Assembly (NCBI GenBank): GCA_964600295.1
Contig: CAZRIY010000002.1
Coordinates: 26,133 to 90,132, forward strand
DNA length: 64,000 nucleotides
Source: an uncultured Candidatus Saccharibacteria bacterium
GTDB lineage: Bacteria; Patescibacteriota; Saccharimonadia; CAZHVB01
Reading direction: 5' to 3'
Made by a program: the position numbers and the translations under genes. Positions 20,381 to 29,280 of this stretch are shown in pieces (the first letter of the stretch is position 1; each line of letters starts with the position of its first letter). Below the pieces are notes generated by a model, which made no database searches, was not told the DNA's origin, and worked only from the letters and a program-made list of their open reading frames with translations.

Positions 20381-22873
20381 ATGAAAGAATTCAACGATTT
20401 CAAAGCTTTTGATGACAGATTGACAGAAAATGCGCGTTACAGTTTGGAGCGGGCCGGCGAAATCGCTCGGGCATTGGGTTCCACTTACATTGGTACCGAA
20501 CACATTCTACTCGGGGTTCTCGGCCAAGAAGGCTCGATTGGAGCCAGAGTATTACGCAATGCCGGCATCACCTTTGAAAGAGCCAAATTAGCTTTATCGC
20601 TTACTCCCAAAGTTATGACCAGCACCTCGGCCAGGGGATTGAGCGAAACTGCCAAGCTGACTCTCCAGCTATCGATGAAAATTGCCCGCGATTTTGGCCA
20701 GGAACGCTGCGGCACCGAACACGTGCTGTTCGGTGTTTTATCCCAAAAGAATGCCCGTGCTACCATCCTATTGCGCGATATGAATGCCGATTTGGATATG
20801 GTGCGCAGCGAGCTTGAGCAATACTTGTCCAACCAGCAGTTTTACTACCAAGAGCGATCCCGGCGCAACTCATCCCGGCAGACCAAGGGGGAAACTCCCA
20901 CTATTGATTATTTTGGGGTTGATCTAACGGCTCAAGCTCGAGCTGGCAAGCTGGACCCAGTAGTTGGCCGCGAAAGCCAAATTAAACGAGTAATTACCAT
21001 CCTCAATCGACGGGTTAAAAACAACCCAGCGTTAATTGGTGAACCCGGTGTGGGCAAAACCGCTATTGTCGAAGGTTTGGCCCAGCAGATAGTGGCCGAG
21101 GATGTGCCCGAACCATTGCTGGGTAAACGAATTGTGATGCTGGATCTATCGGGCGTGATTGCCGGCACCAAGTATCGCGGTGAATTCGAGGATCGTCTAA
21201 AGCGAATTCTGGAGGACCTGCATAACAACAACGACATCATATTATTCATCGACGAGCTGCATTTGATTGTCGGAGCTGGCGCAGCCGAGGGTGCAATTGA
21301 TGCTGGAAATATTCTCAAACCGGCGTTGGCTCGCGGTTTGATTAGGGTTATTGGTGCCACCACTTTGGACGAGTACCGCAAACACATTGAAAGAGATGCC
21401 GCCCTAGAACGCCGTTTCCAGACAGTCTTAGTACCGGAGGCTAGTGGCGAAGAGACAGTGGAAATCTTGAAAGGGCTGCGCAAGCATTACGAAGGCTTTC
21501 ACAAAGTTAGTATTAGCGACGAAGTTATCATTGAAACCGTCAAGCTTGGTACCCGCTATCTTCCAGATAGATATCTGCCAGATAAAGCCATCGATATTTT
21601 GGACGAGGCCGCCGCCGAGGTGCGCATTAACAAACACGGCCGAGCCAGTAGACCAACCAAGCGCCTGCACGCTCAGCTGCGCCAGCTCAATCAAGAAATG
21701 GATGCCGCTGCCGAAGCCGAGAATTATGAACTGGCGGCCCGTCTCAAGACCCAGATCAGCATTTTGGAAGATAAATTAGAACAAACCAAAGCTAAAACTG
21801 CTGGCAAGAGCAAATCCTTGGCCATCAAGACTGATGATATTGCCCACGTTGTGGCTTCAATGACCGGAGTACCGGTGACTAAATTGCTGCGGTCTGAGGT
21901 TCAACAGCTGGTGCGTTTGGACAAAACGCTCAGTCGGCGCATCGTCGGGCAGTCTGAGGCTATCGCCGCTATTGCCCGTTCCATCCGCCGCAATCGCTCC
22001 GGCATTGCCGATATCAAGCGCCCCATCGGCTCCTTCCTATTTATGGGTCCGACCGGCGTGGGTAAGACGGAATTGGCTAAGGTCCTGGCCGAAGAACTAT
22101 TCAATACCAAAGAAGCCCTAATCAAAATTGATATGAGCGAGTTTATGGAACGTCACAACGTTTCCAGGCTGTTGGGTGCCCCCGCTGGTTACATTGGTTA
22201 CGAAGAGGGTGGACAGCTGACCGAGAAAGTCCGACGCCAGCCATATTCGCTGATCCTATTTGATGAGGTTGAAAAAGCTCACCCGGATGTCTTCAACATG
22301 CTGCTGCAGATTTTTGAAGACGGCTATTTGACCGATGCCAAAGGCCGTAGGGTAGATTTCACCAACACGGTTATCATCATGACATCCAATATCGGTGCCG
22401 AGAACCTGCAGAAGGAAGCTGCCCTAGGCTTTCGCATTCGTGAAAGCGGTAATCTCTCTCGTCTTGATTCTTTGCACGAGGACATCAAGGCCAAGGTCTT
22501 TGAGGATCTAAAAAACACCATGCGGCCGGAATTGCTGAATCGCATTGATCAAGTCATCGTCTTTAGGGCCCTTTCCTTATCAGATGTGGGCAAGATTTTA
22601 GAACTACGCCTGAATGAGCTGACCAAACGGCTGAGCGATAAGGGTTTAGCCATTATGCCCTCATCCAGTGCCAAGCGCTATTTGGTTGAAGCCGGTTATG
22701 ACCCGAATTTTGGCGTTAGACCGTTGCGCCGGGTACTCGAGGAGCAAATTGAAGGACCGATTGCAACGGGCATTTTAGAGGGACGCTTCACCCCAGGAGA
22801 TACTATCAAGATTGGCTATCAAGATAAGAAACTGACATTTGAAGTCGCCCATATCAAAAACCCGGTGGCTTAA
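20381..22873 (+). CDS. clpC: ATP-dependent Clp protease ATPase subunit ClpC
   Basis: Two Clp_N repeats, two AAA+ modules ([16 protein letters not shown]) and a short UVR-type middle domain; 830 aa. Confidence 0.9.
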
Positions 22874-22891: not shown

Positions 22892-23848
22892 ATGATGATT
22901 TTCAGGCGCTGGTTTTCGTTGATGTTGTTGGCGGCGCTAATCCTGGGAGCCGCCAAGTTTGAGGACATTCGGGATTGGTGGTGGCTGCGTAACTACCAAC
23001 CAGTGGCCGAAATTCAAGCACTGGCTGATAAAGCCGCTCTGAATGATACCGGCCGGCGCATGTTTTACGTGGGCCGGCCGCGGATTGACGATAAACTAAA
23101 TTTTGCTCGGTCCTGTCCGGTAGGAGAAGCCGAGGGCAGCCTGGTGCTGGGCTGTTATAGCAGCGGCTATATATATCTGTTGGAGGTAAAGCGGACAGAA
23201 CTGGCCGGCGTAATGGAGGTAACTGCCGCCCATGAAATGTTGCACGCGGCCTATGAGCGCTTATCGAGTAAAGATCAACAGACAATTAACCGACAATTGG
23301 AACAATTCTACGGCCAAGTTAACAATCCAGAGCTAGATCAGGTGCTGGTTGATTATGAACAAACCGAACCCGGCCAGCGGCTGAATGAGCTGCATTCGCT
23401 GCTGCCAACCCAAATTGCGGTTCTTAGCCCGGAACTTGAGGCCTACTACAGCCGCTATTTTACCAATCAAGATCAAGTTGCCAATGCTTACTTAGCCTAT
23501 CAAGCTGTATTTAGAAGTTTGGAAGCCCAGATAGAACAGTTGCGGGCAGACGCCAGCTCGCTGCAAGCTCAAATTAGCGCTCAGGAGGCGGCGATGGAGC
23601 AAACTCGGACTGAAATTGAGACTATGAGTAGCCAGATGGATAGCCTCAAGGCTGCGGGTAGGATTGACGAGTATAATGCGCTAGTGCCAGCTTATAATGG
23701 ATTGGTTCGAGAATATAACGGCATGATTACTTATTATCGTGATCTGATTGCGCTGCATAATTCTAAAGTTGATCAGCTTAATCAGTTGGCGCTGGAACAA
23801 AATGAGCTGGTTGAGAGCCTCGACAGCACGAAATTTACGCCACTCTAG
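22892..23848 (+). CDS. secreted/membrane-anchored HExxH-motif protein with C-terminal coiled coil (uncharacterized)
   Basis: N-terminal hydrophobic segment, AAHEMLHAAYE motif and a long Q/E/A-rich heptad region; 318 aa. Confidence 0.5.
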   Translation: MMIFRRWFSLMLLAALILGAAKFEDIRDWWWLRNYQPVAEIQALADKAALNDTGRRMFYVGRPRIDDKLNFARSCPVGEAEGSLVLGCYSSGYIYLLEVKRTELAGVMEVTAAHEMLHAAYERLSSKDQQTINRQLEQFYGQVNNPELDQVLVDYEQTEPGQRLNELHSLLPTQIAVLSPELEAYYSRYFTNQDQVANAYLAYQAVFRSLEAQIEQLRADASSLQAQISAQEAAMEQTRTEIETMSSQMDSLKAAGRIDEYNALVPAYNGLVREYNGMITYYRDLIALHNSKVDQLNQLALEQNELVESLDSTKFTPL

Positions 23849-23853
23849 TAGTC

Positions 23854-24453
23854 TCAAGAGATTTTCTTGGGGCTGGCCGGCAGCACAGAACGAAAATGGC
23901 GGATCAGTTTGGACTGCTGGTCAATCTTGGAAATCTCGGCCAAGCTAACAAAAGTCGCAATACCGTAGGTTCGCTTAAGATATTCGATCTCAATTAAACA
24001 GGGAAAGGGATAAACCCAAGCGCTTTTCTGTAGTTGGTAGAAGCCGAGATCTTTTAGTTTCTGAGTCAACTTATTTCGCGCCTGGCGGTGTTCTTCTGGC
24101 ACATCAAAGATTACCAGCCGCCAACGGCCGTCCCAACGTCTGGGGCGGGGTATGGCCAACTCATCAAGCGAGATTTTTTGGGCTCGTTTGACACCGGTTT
24201 GAGACAACCGCAACCTAAGTTTGCCCTTGGGTTGGTTGGAAACCAAAACCAGTTCTTGTTGCTGGATGTATCGCACAATGCGCTTGAAATAAGCTGGGGC
24301 CGTACTCTTACGCAGCCGCTGTTTAACTTCAATGTTTAAGTAGGGAGCCAGGTTGGGCGCTGAGCGCAGAATTGTAATATTGCCACCGGCCGCCAGATAC
24401 TTGATGACTTGGTTTATGGTTTGCTTCGTCAGTTGGTTTGATGCCATACGCAT
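23854..24453 (-). CDS. PaaX-like (Cas2-fold C-terminal domain) putative transcriptional regulator
   Basis: The WRLVIFDVPEEHRQARNKLTQKLKDLGFYQLQKSAWVY block resembles PaaX_C; 199 aa. Confidence 0.4.
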   Translation of the reverse strand: MRMASNQLTKQTINQVIKYLAAGGNITILRSAPNLAPYLNIEVKQRLRKSTAPAYFKRIVRYIQQQELVLVSNQPKGKLRLRLSQTGVKRAQKISLDELAIPRPRRWDGRWRLVIFDVPEEHRQARNKLTQKLKDLGFYQLQKSAWVYPFPCLIEIEYLKRTYGIATFVSLAEISKIDQQSKLIRHFRSVLPASPKKIS

Positions 24454-24526
24454 ATTTTAGCCGATCGCCGATATTTTTGTAATTGAGCTATCCGAGCCAT
24501 CATAATCGATATGATATTGTTAATCC

Positions 24527-25876
24527 ATGGCAAAACAAGGGGGACGGCATTTTGTCTGTCAGGAGTGTGGACAGACTCAAGCCAAATGGGGCGGACGTTG
24601 CCCAAATTGTGGGGCCTGGAATAGCTTGCTAGAGGAGACCGCACTGCCTACCTCTAACCCCGGACTGGTTAGTCAGGGGAAAGTCATAACCGCTCAACCG
24701 CTTAATAAAATTAGCCACAACAAAGTTGTTAAGCGGCATCAAACCGGAATTGAAGAACTTGAGAACGTCTTGGGGGGCGGCATTGTGCCCGGCAGTCTAA
24801 TTTTGGTGGCGGGAGAGCCAGGTATCGGCAAATCGACGCTACTGCTAGAAGTGGCCGATGGCGTAGCCAAGAACGGCTTGGTGCTCTATGTTAGCGGTGA
24901 AGAATCGCTGGAGCAGTTAAAGCTACGCACGCAGCGGCTTAAAGTCACGGCCGCTCGTCTGGAGCTAGCCGCTTCGGTTAGTAGTGATGATGTAGCCGCT
25001 ACCATCGCCAGCGGTCGCTACCAGTTGGTAATAGTTGACTCGGTGCAAACCATGGCTGCGGCTGGTCTGAGCACATCCGCCGGTAGCATCAGCCAAGTCA
25101 CAACCAGCACCCAGTTGTTCTTGAACGCTGCCAAGGGATCGCAAACGGCGGTTATGCTGGCCGGGCACGTTACCAAAGAGGGCAGCATCGCTGGGCCAAA
25201 GCTGTTGGAACATATCGTTGACGTGGTGCTTTATCTTGAGGGCGAGCGCTTTGGCAATTTTAAACTGCTACGCAGTACCAAGAATCGCTTCGGGTCAACC
25301 TATGAAGTAGGCATATTTGAAATGATCGAATCGGGGTTAGTACCGGTAGATAACCCTTCCAAGGCCTTTTTGGATGAGCGCCAAAGTAGCGACGGTTCCG
25401 TAGTTTTGGCTGCGATCGAGGGGTCGCGGGCTATTTTGGTGGAAGTTCAGGCGCTGGTTAGTCCCTCGCCCTTCGGCTATCCCAAGCGGACAGCCGTCGG
25501 CTTTGATCTCAACCGGTTAAACTTGTTGCTGGCGGTACTTAATAAAAGAGGGGGGATGCATCTTGGTACCCACGATGTGTATATTAATATCGTGAGTGGT
25601 ATGAGAATTAACGAACCGGCAGCTGATTTGGCCGTAGCCATGGCAATTGCTTCGGCTGCTCGTTCTCATATCCTGGTCGATAAAACTGTGGTCTTCGGCG
25701 AGGTGGGACTAGGCGGTGAAGTACGCAAAGTAGCCCATGCCGAAACCAGAATTAAGGAGGCCCAAAAGCTGGGATTTAGCCAAGCTATCGCTCCGTCGGC
25801 TGATGGAGCCAGTGGATTTATTAAAGTAGCCAGAAACTTAAGCCAAGCCATAAAGCTGGGGTTGGAGAACAAATGA
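24527..25876 (+). CDS. radA: DNA repair protein RadA/Sms
   Basis: C4 zinc finger (CQECG...CPNCG), RecA-like ATPase (GEPGIGKST) and a Lon-like C-terminus. Confidence 0.95.
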   Translation: MAKQGGRHFVCQECGQTQAKWGGRCPNCGAWNSLLEETALPTSNPGLVSQGKVITAQPLNKISHNKVVKRHQTGIEELENVLGGGIVPGSLILVAGEPGIGKSTLLLEVADGVAKNGLVLYVSGEESLEQLKLRTQRLKVTAARLELAASVSSDDVAATIASGRYQLVIVDSVQTMAAAGLSTSAGSISQVTTSTQLFLNAAKGSQTAVMLAGHVTKEGSIAGPKLLEHIVDVVLYLEGERFGNFKLLRSTKNRFGSTYEVGIFEMIESGLVPVDNPSKAFLDERQSSDGSVVLAAIEGSRAILVEVQALVSPSPFGYPKRTAVGFDLNRLNLLLAVLNKRGGMHLGTHDVYINIVSGMRINEPAADLAVAMAIASAARSHILVDKTVVFGEVGLGGEVRKVAHAETRIKEAQKLGFSQAIAPSADGASGFIKVARNLSQAIKLGLENK

Positions 25877-26595
25877 TAGATATCTTAATTGTAGTTTTAA
25901 ATTTATTGGCGTTGGTCGGTCTCGGCTGGTTGATCACCAAAACTCGCCGACCGGCTTCCCATAACAAGGGGTTGGTTTGTTTGCTCGATACCAGTGCCCT
26001 GATCGATGGCCGCATCTTAGAAGTAGCCCACACTGGCTTCTTACCTACCCATCTGATGTTGCCCGAATTCATTCTGTCCGAGCTGCAGCATATCGCCGAT
26101 AGCCCAGAAGAATTGCGCCGCTCGCGAGGCCGTTTGGGTTTGGATGTAGTCAAGAAGCTCCAGGCCATGGGTGATTTGAGTGTGGAAGTAATTGAGGATC
26201 GGGCGCCAGATGTAGAGGCGGTGGATGACAAGTTGGTGGCTATTGCCAAAGCTGCCAATGCGGCCATCATCACCACTGACTACAATCTTAATCAAGTGGC
26301 CACCATCAATGGCATCAAAGTTCTAAACGTCAATGAATTGGCACAAGCGCTTCGTCCCCTGGCCCTACCCGGCGAGCGGGTCAAGATCAAGCTTGTCCAG
26401 CGGGGCAGTGATCATGGTCAAGCCGTCGGTTACTTGGACGATGGCACCATGGTAGTAGTGGATCGCGCCCACCGCTTAATCGGCCAGGAGGTAGAAGCCG
26501 AAGTTAATCGAATTATGCAGACCGTAGCCGGAAAAATGCTATTTGCCCGCCTATTGTCGACTGGCTCGAGCGAAGCGGCGAAAGACAAGACTTAG
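25873..26595 (+). CDS. yacL: membrane-anchored PIN-TRAM domain protein (YacL-like)
   Basis: Transmembrane N-terminus, PIN domain (LLDTSALIDGRILE) and a C-terminal TRAM domain. Stop overlaps the radA end by 4 nt. Confidence 0.8.
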   Translation: MIDILIVVLNLLALVGLGWLITKTRRPASHNKGLVCLLDTSALIDGRILEVAHTGFLPTHLMLPEFILSELQHIADSPEELRRSRGRLGLDVVKKLQAMGDLSVEVIEDRAPDVEAVDDKLVAIAKAANAAIITTDYNLNQVATINGIKVLNVNELAQALRPLALPGERVKIKLVQRGSDHGQAVGYLDDGTMVVVDRAHRLIGQEVEAEVNRIMQTVAGKMLFARLLSTGSSEAAKDKT

Positions 26596-29280
26596 CCAAC
26601 CCGCAACGCTTGGCAGGTAGACGATACCACTGAAGATCGGTCCCTGTCGGCGGCCGCGGGGTAAAATTGGATTCTGGGGGTTCCAGGTAGTAGTGATACT
26701 GTACTCGCCGGTGTATAAGGCCTTATCGTAGACCACCCCATTGAAGGTATAAGAGCCCGGAGACGGCGGTTTGTACTCAATATCATAGGTACCATTGCCG
26801 CTGATAGCCTGCTCGTGTATTTGTTGTCCGTTGGCAGTGATTGTCAACTTATCTAGGGCATGGGTGCCGCCAGTCACCGTGGCTTTAATTTTGATCTTAT
26901 CTTTATCAGGATCTGTATCAAGAACCACGGTCGGTTTGCTGTCTGAGCAGTTATGTATGGTATCTTTTTCCGACGGGATTGGGCCCCCGGCTCCGCCAAG
27001 CGAACGCACACCCGCGCTCCAGCGCGCATAGGCAGGATCGGTTGAGGGAATTTCTGGTTCTATGCCTACGCTGGTTCTCTCCTCGCGAGCTAATGGTGGA
27101 GTACAATCGGTGGCCAATTTGCCCGAAACCTTATCGACGGTGGCGGTTTGGGGGCCGGGTGAGGGCTGGGGGGTAAACCAGGCCGGGAAAATGTCGGTAA
27201 CACTGCCGCTCGAACCCTGGCCAGGTAGCTTGCCAGTCGTTCTGTCCAAAGTGACATTCTTCAAACCCTCGGGTTTATCGAAGGGCTTGTTCTCCTTCCC
27301 CTCATGGGCTTTGGCCATAAAGGGCGCCCAAATGGTTCCAGTTAAGGTCGAGGTGATGCCGCTCATGGCTTTATTATCGCTATGGCCCACCCAGACGCCA
27401 GCCACCAGGTGCTTGCTGCCGCCAATCATCCAACCGTCGCGATTCTTATCGGTAGTACCGGTTTTGACAAAGGCAGACTGACCAGGGATTGTCATATATT
27501 TGGCGGAGCTACCGAAGGTAATCGAGCGGGCCGCCGGATCAGATAAAATATTTGTCATCAGGTAGGCAATCTGGGGATCGAGCACCCGTTTGCCCTCGCC
27601 TTTATGTTCGTAGGCCACCTCGCCTTTGGGCGTTGTAGCTTTAATTATCGGGCTGGCCTCGTAGTGCAGACCGCCATTGGCAAATGTTTCATAGCCGTTA
27701 ACGTGGTCGGCCAGCTTAATTTCACCTGCACCCAATACCAGACTTAGCCCATAATCTTCCGGGTTATCCAAGGTGGTGATGCCCATGCTGTGGGCGGTAT
27801 CCAGGGCTTCTTGCAGGCCTACAATATAAAGCATTTTGACGGCTGGGATGTTAAAGGAATTACCCAGCGCATGCCGGATGGTCATGGCGCCGTGGAAGCG
27901 GTTGTCGTAGTTATTGGGTACATAACCGCCGCCAAAATCTGTCCGAACATCATACATTACGCTGCCCGGGCCCCATTTGCCGGTTTTAAAGCCGGCGGCA
28001 TAGACGTAAGGCTTAAAACTTGAGCCTGGTTGACGACGCGCCAGCGCGGCGTTGAACGAACCGTAGCCCGGGTGGTTGAAACCACGGCTGCCAACCATGG
28101 CCATGACTTCGCCGTTTTCCGGATTACCGGCCACCAGCGCCGCATTATTGCCGCCAGCTCTATCGATGACACCAATTCCGGCCGCCACTGCTTCCTCAGC
28201 CTTTTTTTGAATATCAACATCGAGCGAAGTAATAACGTGCAGTCCGCCCTCGCTAACCTGGCGCTCACCCAGCTTCTCCTTTAAATATGATTCGGCGTAG
28301 AGCACAAAATGAGGGGCGGTGACGTTAGCATAGAGATCCGGCACTTCGTTAACCTTGGCATAGGTATCAGTCTGTTTGGCGGCTTCGGACTCCTCGGCGC
28401 TGAGTAGACCTTGATCGCGCATCAGATCTAGAATTAAATCTTGGCGGGCGAACAGCTCATCCAGGTGCTCACCATAAGGGGAGTAATAGGTGGGAGCCTT
28501 GGGTAAAGCCGCCAGCAGCGCCGCCTCGTCGGCCGTTAGGTCTTTGGCGTCTTTACTGAAATAGGTTTTGGCCGCCGCCTGGACACCGTAGGCTTGGGCG
28601 CCGTAGGGAATTTCGTTCAAATAAAGCTCAAGAATGTCTTCCTTGGCGTACAGCTGCTCGATCTGAATCGACAAAATTAGCTCTTTGACTTTGCGGGTGA
28701 AGGTTCGTTCCGGGCTCAAGAGGGCATTCTTAACATACTGCTGAGTAATAGTTGAGCCACCCTGAATTTGCTGGTCTCGATTGAGGACATTATTGATGGC
28801 GGCCCGCAGGATACCCAGCGAACTAAAAGCCCCGTGGCGGTAAAAATTCCTATCTTCAATGGCCACCGTGGCATTGCGAATATAAGGGGAAATATTCTCC
28901 AGCTCAATTACGGTGCGATTTTGGTCACCGTGGACTTCGTAAAGGAGGTGCTGGCCAGTCCTATCATAAAAACGGGTAGTTTGGGCCAGGATTCGGCTAT
29001 TGACTTGGCCCGGGGTTGGCAAATCCTTGGCAAAGTAGAGGAACAGGGCAGCTACAAAGGCCACCCCAATGCCGAACCAGATGCCAATAATCTTAAGGGC
29101 GGCAATCCCGCCGTATTTGGTAAACCAAAAATCGCGAAATCGCTTGGGATTTATATACCATAGCCAACGTTTCCACCAAGTTTGGGGAATTTTAATACCG
29201 GCTGGTGCACGGCGAACATGACGGCCGCTCTTACCCAGCAGTTTTCTGACAGGATGTTTAATTATACGAAGAAGTCTCAT
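26551..29280 (-). CDS. class A penicillin-binding protein (transglycosylase + transpeptidase) with C-terminal extension
   Basis: Transmembrane anchor, the EDRNFYRHGAFS glycosyltransferase motif and a transpeptidase domain; 909 aa. Confidence 0.9.
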   Translation of the reverse strand: MRLLRIIKHPVRKLLGKSGRHVRRAPAGIKIPQTWWKRWLWYINPKRFRDFWFTKYGGIAALKIIGIWFGIGVAFVAALFLYFAKDLPTPGQVNSRILAQTTRFYDRTGQHLLYEVHGDQNRTVIELENISPYIRNATVAIEDRNFYRHGAFSSLGILRAAINNVLNRDQQIQGGSTITQQYVKNALLSPERTFTRKVKELILSIQIEQLYAKEDILELYLNEIPYGAQAYGVQAAAKTYFSKDAKDLTADEAALLAALPKAPTYYSPYGEHLDELFARQDLILDLMRDQGLLSAEESEAAKQTDTYAKVNEVPDLYANVTAPHFVLYAESYLKEKLGERQVSEGGLHVITSLDVDIQKKAEEAVAAGIGVIDRAGGNNAALVAGNPENGEVMAMVGSRGFNHPGYGSFNAALARRQPGSSFKPYVYAAGFKTGKWGPGSVMYDVRTDFGGGYVPNNYDNRFHGAMTIRHALGNSFNIPAVKMLYIVGLQEALDTAHSMGITTLDNPEDYGLSLVLGAGEIKLADHVNGYETFANGGLHYEASPIIKATTPKGEVAYEHKGEGKRVLDPQIAYLMTNILSDPAARSITFGSSAKYMTIPGQSAFVKTGTTDKNRDGWMIGGSKHLVAGVWVGHSDNKAMSGITSTLTGTIWAPFMAKAHEGKENKPFDKPEGLKNVTLDRTTGKLPGQGSSGSVTDIFPAWFTPQPSPGPQTATVDKVSGKLATDCTPPLAREERTSVGIEPEIPSTDPAYARWSAGVRSLGGAGGPIPSEKDTIHNCSDSKPTVVLDTDPDKDKIKIKATVTGGTHALDKLTITANGQQIHEQAISGNGTYDIEYKPPSPGSYTFNGVVYDKALYTGEYSITTTWNPQNPILPRGRRQGPIFSGIVYLPSVAGWLSLVFRRFARASRQ

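Follow-up and report, generated by a model that had tools for sequence, protein, structure and literature searches.

In Bacillus subtilis, clpC belongs to the operon ctsR-mcsA-mcsB-clpC-radA-disA-yacL. This Firmicutes arrangement is the described counterpart of the locus analyzed here, which lies in a 64,000-nucleotide (nt) window (the whole stretch of DNA examined; contig CAZRIY010000002.1, positions 26,133 to 90,132, assembly GCA_964600295.1) from an uncultured "Candidatus Saccharibacteria" bacterium. The two share the order clpC, radA, and a PIN-TRAM (YacL-like) gene, as well as a stress-controlled promoter. The Saccharibacteria block differs in being associated with HrcA and its operator, CIRCE (controlling inverted repeat of chaperone expression), instead of CtsR and in lacking mcsA, mcsB, and disA. 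Unlike Firmicutes, nearly all Saccharibacteria also have a gene interposed between clpC and radA; it encodes a protein of about 320 amino acids (aa), which we refer to as X and which is the subject of this study.

At the protein level, the described systems closest to X are the M34/ATLF zincins (anthrax lethal factor [LF], PPEP-1, PPEP-2, PPEP-3, and the N-terminal domain of Certhrax), which are its structurally nearest relatives, although there is no relationship at the level of sequence. In contrast to these proteins, X is predicted to be membrane anchored, carries a 118-residue helical hairpin, and is encoded in a clpC heat-shock operon. As functional analogues, we propose HtpX/M48 and BepA (an M48 domain with a chaperone-like tetratricopeptide repeat domain). 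HtpX, however, has several transmembrane (TM) helices and a catalytic domain facing the cytoplasm, whereas X has a single TM helix, an apparently outward-facing catalytic domain, no PF01435 match, and a different accessory module.

X is a class-wide resident of the clpC block

In the open reading frame (ORF) map of the window, clpC (20381-22873, + strand) encodes an 830-aa protein with Clp_N, two AAA modules, UVR, and ClpB_D2-small in Pfam. It is followed after 18 nt by X (22892-23848, + strand), whose 318-aa product is a predicted membrane-anchored, zincin-like protein with a helical hairpin. A terminator scan of the window found no intrinsic terminator-like site in the clpC-X gap.

Relatives of X were found in at least 583 GTDB species-representative genomes, and most of the best 80 are labeled Saccharibacteria or Saccharimonadia. 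Synteny was counted in these best 80, with neighboring genes located by tblastn of the window's neighboring proteins against the 80 loci. The gene directly upstream of X, on the same strand, is clpC in 76/80 loci (at most 150 nt away in 73; median gap, 23.5 nt), with radA following X in 75 (at most 150 nt away in 58). Therefore, the block nusA-clpC-X-radA-(PIN-TRAM)-PBP1(−)-tyrS, where PBP1 is a penicillin-binding protein (PBP) gene on the opposite strand, is class-wide in Saccharibacteria. A first-pass annotation of this DNA had described X and the PaaX-like gene that follows it as two genes inserted into a Firmicutes-like block; this stands for the PaaX-like gene, which was found in 3 of 88 loci, and not for X, whose position beside clpC extends across the species compared. 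Other inserts in the block vary by lineage, such as a CNNM gene between X and radA (locus L005) or a chorismate mutase gene and an NTPase gene between clpC and X (L008), indicating that both the X-radA and the clpC-X junctions tolerate insertions. One locus with the full nusA-clpC-X-radA-PIN-TRAM-PBP synteny of Saccharibacteria comes from an alphaproteobacterial metagenome-assembled genome labeled Magnetospirillaceae (L049), and its contig was probably misbinned. Another locus, L032, is on a 2.1-kb contig labeled Actinomycetota.

Protein searches gave a similar picture of the family. A word-indexed search with X returned 2026 matches, the best 120 of which span 227 to 352 aa (nearly all about 300 to 350 aa); all organism-bearing names among these 120 are Saccharibacteria, Saccharimonadales, or Patescibacteria. 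The functional labels in this set are "hypothetical" or coiled-coil artifacts such as "chromosome segregation ATPase." An exhaustive profile search with the N-terminal domain alone retrieved 1348 clusters (50% identity) at an E value of ≤1e-3 and 684 at ≤1e-30, and the top 150 of the 1348 share a common architecture, most being about 320 aa long with the domain at the same position. Judged from these searches, the X family appears to be uncurated and, as far as we checked, new.

The clpC-X operon is associated with CIRCE

HrcA, a heat-shock repressor, has CIRCE as its operator. Upstream of clpC, the window contains the inverted repeat TTAGCACTC-TTGACGCTA-GAGTGCCAA (20279-20305), which has an N9 spacer and a single mismatch to TTAGCACTC-N9-GAGTGCTAA. 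It overlaps a sigma-70-like promoter for the clpC-X unit (TTGACG-17-TAGAAT; 20288-20316, + strand; 10/12 consensus match), whose −35 hexamer, TTGACG, lies inside the CIRCE spacer. When sites with at most three mismatches were counted as CIRCE-like, 65 of the 67 loci with enough upstream sequence had one no farther than 300 nt upstream of clpC, and there were just 66 such sites in the 761 kb of these loci. The CIRCE site at the clpC promoter therefore marks clpC-X, usually together with radA, as a putative HrcA/CIRCE unit. The co-transcription of clpC and X, which had been proposed as likely on the basis of the 18-nt gap, becomes almost certain with the small gaps in 73/80 loci and the shared CIRCE-controlled promoter.

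A second CIRCE-like repeat, TTGGCACTC-N9-GAGTGCCAG (37505-37531; three mismatches), follows the trigger factor gene and a 117-aa ORF and precedes clpP (37552-38166) by about 20 nt. These are the two CIRCE-like sites in all of the 64-kb window, and as each precedes a clp gene, HrcA, rather than CtsR, seems to control the Clp machinery. CtsR control of clpC was considered and rejected in favor of CIRCE, since there were 13 weak matches to the CtsR box, none of them near clpC. The annotation of Southlakia epibionticum includes an HrcA homologue. A literature search did not find HrcA or CIRCE together with Saccharibacteria among the matches listed (12 of 1,410), and the TM7x transcriptome paper deals with host clpC only and is uninformative for X. 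The class-wide seat of X in a CIRCE-controlled clpC operon is new as far as we checked.

X contains a distant zincin domain

Residues 23 to 190 of X (22958-23461, + strand) form an alpha/beta domain whose AlphaFold model has the hallmarks of the zincin fold, namely, a mixed sheet ahead of the active-site helix and a later helix with a candidate third ligand. The putative zinc-binding and catalytic motif HEMLH (H114-E115-x-x-H118; 23231-23245, + strand) is part of the stretch AAHEMLHAAYE (residues 112 to 122) and lies on helix 106-122. Two helices later (163-174), the motif NELHS (23384-23398, + strand) contains the invariant residues E166, H168, and S169, giving the layout of a gluzincin, in which E166, 48 residues past H118, is a candidate for the third zinc ligand.

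These residues are highly conserved. In an alignment of 32 diverse X sequences, the invariant positions include C75, C88, H114, E115, H118, Y121, Y155, E166, H168, and F190. These residues and S169 are likewise invariant across all 49 members of a branch found in Acidimicrobiia (described below). HExxH is retained in 263/263 members of the X family and in 49/49 Acidimicrobiia-type members, that is, in 312 homologues. The spacing between H118 and E166 is 48 or 49 in 221/263 family members, and exactly two cysteines, which probably form a disulfide, are present in 233/263. The first-pass annotation had read HExxH as a possible zinc-peptidase site, and the invariance of the motif among homologues, together with the zincin fold of the model, supports that reading.

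The folds nearest to the X domain are LF/PPEP-like (M34), followed by YbeY, minigluzincins, M48/BepA, and BlaR1, all with modest scores. A Foldseek search of the isolated domain against the PDB gave nothing significant (best E value, 1.8; LF chains at a TM-score of 0.43). Taken together, the modest structural scores and the lack of a significant Foldseek match place X on a distant branch of the zincin fold. The domain has no family in Pfam, NCBIfam, PADLOC, or PHROGs. When 30 family members were compared with Pfam at an E value of ≤10, neither ATLF nor any other peptidase family rose above noise, and a sequence-profile search of the PDB gave coiled-coil noise only with full-length X and nothing with the domain alone. 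Membership in M34/ATLF was accordingly not assigned by sequence profile, since neither a Pfam ATLF match nor a PDB sequence match was obtained. The SprT/WLM and M48-like folds put forward in the first-pass annotation did not hold up either: X lacks the third His six residues after the second that would complete HExxHxxxxxH, and for M48 (HtpX/Ste24), there is no PF01435 match and X has a single N-terminal helix rather than a multipass membrane region.

A probable counterpart of X, as judged by position, size, and fold, is SEML1_0511 of S. epibionticum, a 999-bp hypothetical gene between clpC and radA. Residues 41 to 215 of its product were assigned to the ECOD group "Metalloproteases (zincins) catalytic domain" on the template anthrax LF e4dv8A2 (p 0.857; Wang et al. 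2023, Table S2, PMC10633639). The zincin assignment is already published in a supplementary table, and the fold class itself is known.

The zincin domain is predicted to face outward

The N terminus of X is a predicted N-in signal-anchor TM helix (residues 2 to 21; 22895-22954, + strand), which is helical in the AlphaFold model and is followed by a conserved Trp-rich DWWxLRxY helix that fits an interfacial position next to an uncleaved anchor. Across the family, the hydrophobic helix has a median hydropathy of 2.18 and a median start near residue 5. The net charge of its flanks is +2.8 on the N-terminal side versus +0.15 on the C-terminal side, with the N flank being the more positive in 137/144 sequences, which favors an N-in/C-out orientation. 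This charge bias, the signal-peptide-like starts of the Acidimicrobiia homologues, and the two invariant cysteines, which are consistent with a disulfide, together argue that the domain is extracytoplasmic. The earlier suggestion that X is exported or membrane tethered by a hydrophobic N terminus is thus in line with both the modeled helix and the outward charge bias. As few residues would be left in the cytoplasm, binding of X to ClpC or to a sigma factor is implausible, and the coupling between X and ClpC would be transcriptional, through the heat-shock regulon, rather than physical.

A helical hairpin carries a conserved Asn ladder

The zincin domain is followed by an antiparallel two-helix hairpin (residues 193 to 310, with helices 193-254 and 258-310; 23468-23821, + strand), which spans about 118 aa in the AlphaFold model, with each arm being about 9 nm long, and which corresponds to the roughly 120 aa of heptad repeats noted previously. 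Its first helix has ordinary I/L residues at the a/d positions and is otherwise variable. The second has a strict heptad repeat of the form [Y/H]-N-x-x-V (23672-23785, + strand) with invariant N262, N269, N276, N290, and N297. With V and Y as the a/d core, the Asn residues fall at the flanking e position and form a ladder with a 10.5-Å period on one side of the hairpin. In the Acidimicrobiia branch, the ladder is kept and has an additional N at position 283, but S, Q, or A stands in place of three of the Tyr residues, which indicates that the Asn ladder is the constrained feature. The ladder has been retained in both phyla, whereas the remaining surface has drifted, and it may provide either a seam for oligomerization or a rail for binding a ligand.

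The best PDB sequence matches to residues 218 to 289 are 8ub3, 8uao, and 8ubg, the de novo designed filaments DpHF7/18/19, which are built of Asn-containing heptads (EHNRAIVEHNAIIVENN). The repeat chemistry of the natural X family therefore resembles that of designed helices with hydrogen-bond networks. The combination of a TM helix, a distant zincin domain, and an Asn-ladder hairpin in one protein is, as far as we checked, a new architecture.

An Acidimicrobiia branch of the family

A genuine homologue of X, 43% identical over the shared part, is encoded at positions 1619 to 3343 of an Acidimicrobiia contig with 70% GC content (L025). A search seeded with this protein yielded about 60 proteins of approximately 480 to 530 aa (P0321-P0381 included), some of them from genomes of 2.5 to 2.6 Mb. 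In Acidimicrobiia (L025, L089, and L090), the gene is not adjacent to clpC or radA. The N termini of these homologues resemble cleavable Sec signal peptides, ending, as judged by eye, in PASGA or PASA with a further A after the apparent cleavage site, and an extra domain of about 230 aa lies between the signal peptide and the zincin domain. This extra domain matched SecDF_P1_head in 9/49 members (best E value, 1.2e-7; 32 bits versus a cutoff of 27). The P1 head subdomain of SecDF contacts unfolded preproteins emerging from SecYEG, and the fusion hints that the X module may act on unfolded exported polypeptides.

In a neighbor-joining tree (without support values), the 49 Acidimicrobiia sequences form one clade nested within Saccharibacteria, as a sister to P0017, P0020, P0033, and P0068. 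Two of these four, P0017 and P0020, apparently come from the sub-clade with the PaaX-like gene, which the window also has. The nesting of the Acidimicrobiia clade suggests, tentatively, a single transfer of X from Saccharibacteria into Acidimicrobiia.

Proposed function of X

Based on the gene structure, conservation, synteny, CIRCE site, fold class, and topology signals described above, we propose, with moderate confidence, that X is a heat-shock-coregulated, membrane-anchored, outward-facing metallopeptidase of the gluzincin type. Its targets would be exported and membrane proteins that are unfolded or in surplus, and the hairpin would be an arm for holding or oligomerization. In this model, HrcA would repress the promoter of clpC, which its operator overlaps, and heat or proteotoxic stress would induce clpC-X, usually with radA; clpP appears to be under HrcA/CIRCE control as well in the window. 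Under stress, ClpC for cytoplasmic proteolysis would be made together with X, which, at the outer face of the membrane, may cut exported and membrane proteins that are misfolded, unfolded, or in surplus, while the hairpin could act in oligomerization, in holding substrates, or in both. In transposon sequencing of Southlakia, SEML1_0511 was non-essential at all three time points (53 to 67 insertions), as were clpC, clpP, and radA, whereas nusA, the PBP gene, and tyrS were essential or growth defective. Non-essentiality fits a stress-specific function without identifying it.

Like the secreted Pro-Pro endopeptidases PPEP/Zmp1 (M34), X could instead be a protease for envelope remodeling or surface-protein processing that cuts specific surface adhesins, pilins, or peptidoglycan stem peptides, with the ladder docking on a polymer of regular period, for instance, a glycan strand. 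We regard this as unlikely. PPEP genes usually adjoin their substrate genes, and yet no candidate substrate gene is adjacent to X; in addition, Pfam scans detected no cell-wall-binding domain, the ladder Tyr residues are not kept in the Acidimicrobiia branch, and both the CIRCE control and the fusion to a SecDF P1 head point to stress and unfolded proteins. A more specific and rather doubtful idea, which would combine the hairpin and the active site, is a "rail-and-cutter" envelope protease, class-wide in Saccharibacteria and once passed to Acidimicrobiia, in which the Asn ladder would grip an extended polymer by repeated side-chain hydrogen bonds and pass it along to the active site of the zincin. 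Two candidates for the polymer are a glycan strand, whose disaccharide period is about 10.3 Å, and an unfolded secretory polypeptide, whose backbone would be held in the manner of the Asn ladders of armadillo repeats; such a protease, if real, would be previously undescribed.

The remaining explanations do less well against the same observations. That X retains a zincin-like fold as a non-catalytic structural or scaffolding coiled-coil protein, as the N-terminal domains of LF and Certhrax do, is very improbable, since dead zincin domains lose HExxH, whereas X retains this motif, E166, H168, and Y155 without exception in two phyla and 312 sequences. The tight, class-wide linkage to clpC and the nature of X as a single-pass membrane protein with HExxH are what a ClpC-coupled, membrane-tethered regulated protease or an anti-sigma-like signaling factor, the function suggested in the first-pass annotation, would lead one to expect. 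With a helix that starts at about residue 5, however, X has no cytoplasmic domain with which to bind a sigma factor or ClpC, and its catalytic domain would be outside; the conserved neighborhood (clpC in 76/80 loci, radA in 75/80) contains no sigma or anti-sigma gene, and the Acidimicrobiia homologues are apparently secreted and encoded away from clpC, so we give this proposal only a slight chance. Equally slight is the chance that X is a host-directed effector, an LF-like toxin protease against the Actinobacteria hosts of these epibionts, despite its LF-like fold, the epibiotic lifestyle of Saccharibacteria on Actinobacteria, and the apparent exchange of the family with an Actinomycetota class: in Saccharibacteria, X is membrane anchored rather than secreted, dispensable for growth on the host, and seated in a housekeeping stress operon, and in Acidimicrobiia, it is an ordinary chromosomal gene.

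The PaaX-like gene and neighboring genes

Downstream of X in the window, the order of the first-pass annotation, with its coordinates and gaps, was confirmed. The stop codon of X lies 5 nt from a convergent 199-aa ORF (23854-24453, − strand), which is followed by a divergent intergenic region of 73 nt (24454-24526), radA (24527-25876, + strand; Pfam RadA), and the PIN-TRAM gene (25873-26595, + strand; Pfam PIN and TRAM). The 199-aa protein, earlier called a regulator with a PaaX_C/Cas2 fold, is indeed of the PaaX type with a Cas2-like domain, but the Pfam match is to PaaX_M (PF20803, the central Cas2-like domain; E value, 1e-22) and not to PaaX_C, which was not detected in it and is present in the longer relatives P0176 and P0177. 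It shares with the PaaX family this central domain and its WDGxWR..FDVPE signature, which is preceded by a probable winged helix-turn-helix (wHTH; about residues 50 to 100). It differs in lacking PaaX_C, in being about 100 aa shorter than PaaX, and in having no adjacent paa genes. Identity as a full PaaX repressor was rejected because PaaX_M alone was detected and the TIGR02277 (PaaX equivalog) score was 26.2 bits against a cutoff of 264.55. A Cas2 identity was rejected as well, given the length of 199 aa against about 90 to 100 aa for stand-alone Cas2 and the neighbors X and radA; the TIGR01573 (Cas2) match is limited to residues 111 to 147, and no cas1 gene or CRISPR is adjacent.

The window, L007, and L010 are the only loci with the PaaX-like gene between X and radA. 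The gene product has four closest homologues at 49 to 71% identity, three of which are encoded on contigs equal in length to those with the closest homologues of X, and its other relatives, few of them named and including Parcubacteria, are at most 40% identical and come from other sources. We consider it a recent insertion in one small lineage and an unrelated small regulator. With this convergent gene in between, radA must be transcribed from a promoter of its own, so the insertion has probably uncoupled radA from the clpC promoter. The divergent intergenic region contains weak promoter-like sites (9/12) for both the PaaX-like gene and radA. A palindromic motif in the same region, GCCGATCGC (AGCCGATCGC; 24460-24472), is shared with L007 (approximately 4760-4775) and absent in L010; it is a possible operator, although the signals in this spacer, a trivial palindrome plus the short motif in common with a single relative, were too weak for us to call one. 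Other PaaX_M-like relatives, one of them named Parcubacteria, have a hydrophobic, TM-like segment (e.g., LGIIAMGGIITFSAAFPALL) ahead of the wHTH, and the corresponding position is less hydrophobic in the window's copy. A membrane-associated PaaX-like regulator would be unusual.

Further along the block, radA and the PIN-TRAM gene overlap by 4 nt (25873-25876), which suggests translational coupling. From its most upstream start, the class A PBP ORF (26551-29280, − strand) overlaps the 3' end of the PIN-TRAM gene convergently by 45 nt (26551-26595). On the other side, just upstream of nusA, lies a gene for an M13 (neprilysin/PepO-like) peptidase (16917-18863), and the equivalent position elsewhere in Saccharibacteria is occupied by an M3 peptidase (L001) or an M1 peptidase (L003 and L005). 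Therefore, the place beside the clpC-X block is repeatedly taken by a large zinc peptidase, the family of which varies.

Implications

The fold class of X is known and its gene is dispensable in culture, and in this respect the finding is not revolutionary. However, Saccharibacteria genomes are tiny, and a gene that keeps the same place in almost all of the species compared is likely to be important to the physiology of these bacteria. The presence of CIRCE, not CtsR, before both clpC and clpP gives a first view of how a heat-shock regulon is wired in a lineage of the candidate phyla radiation. Genes may also have moved between Saccharibacteria and Actinomycetota, the phylum to which the hosts of cultivated Saccharibacteria belong, as the Acidimicrobiia offshoot hints. 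With its TM helix, zincin domain, and Asn-ladder hairpin, the X family offers a fold-defined seed for a new Pfam or MEROPS family. Although X is still annotated as "hypothetical" or, spuriously, as a chromosome segregation ATPase, its reading as an outward-facing zincin in a CIRCE-controlled operon would give a class-wide dark-matter gene a testable function.

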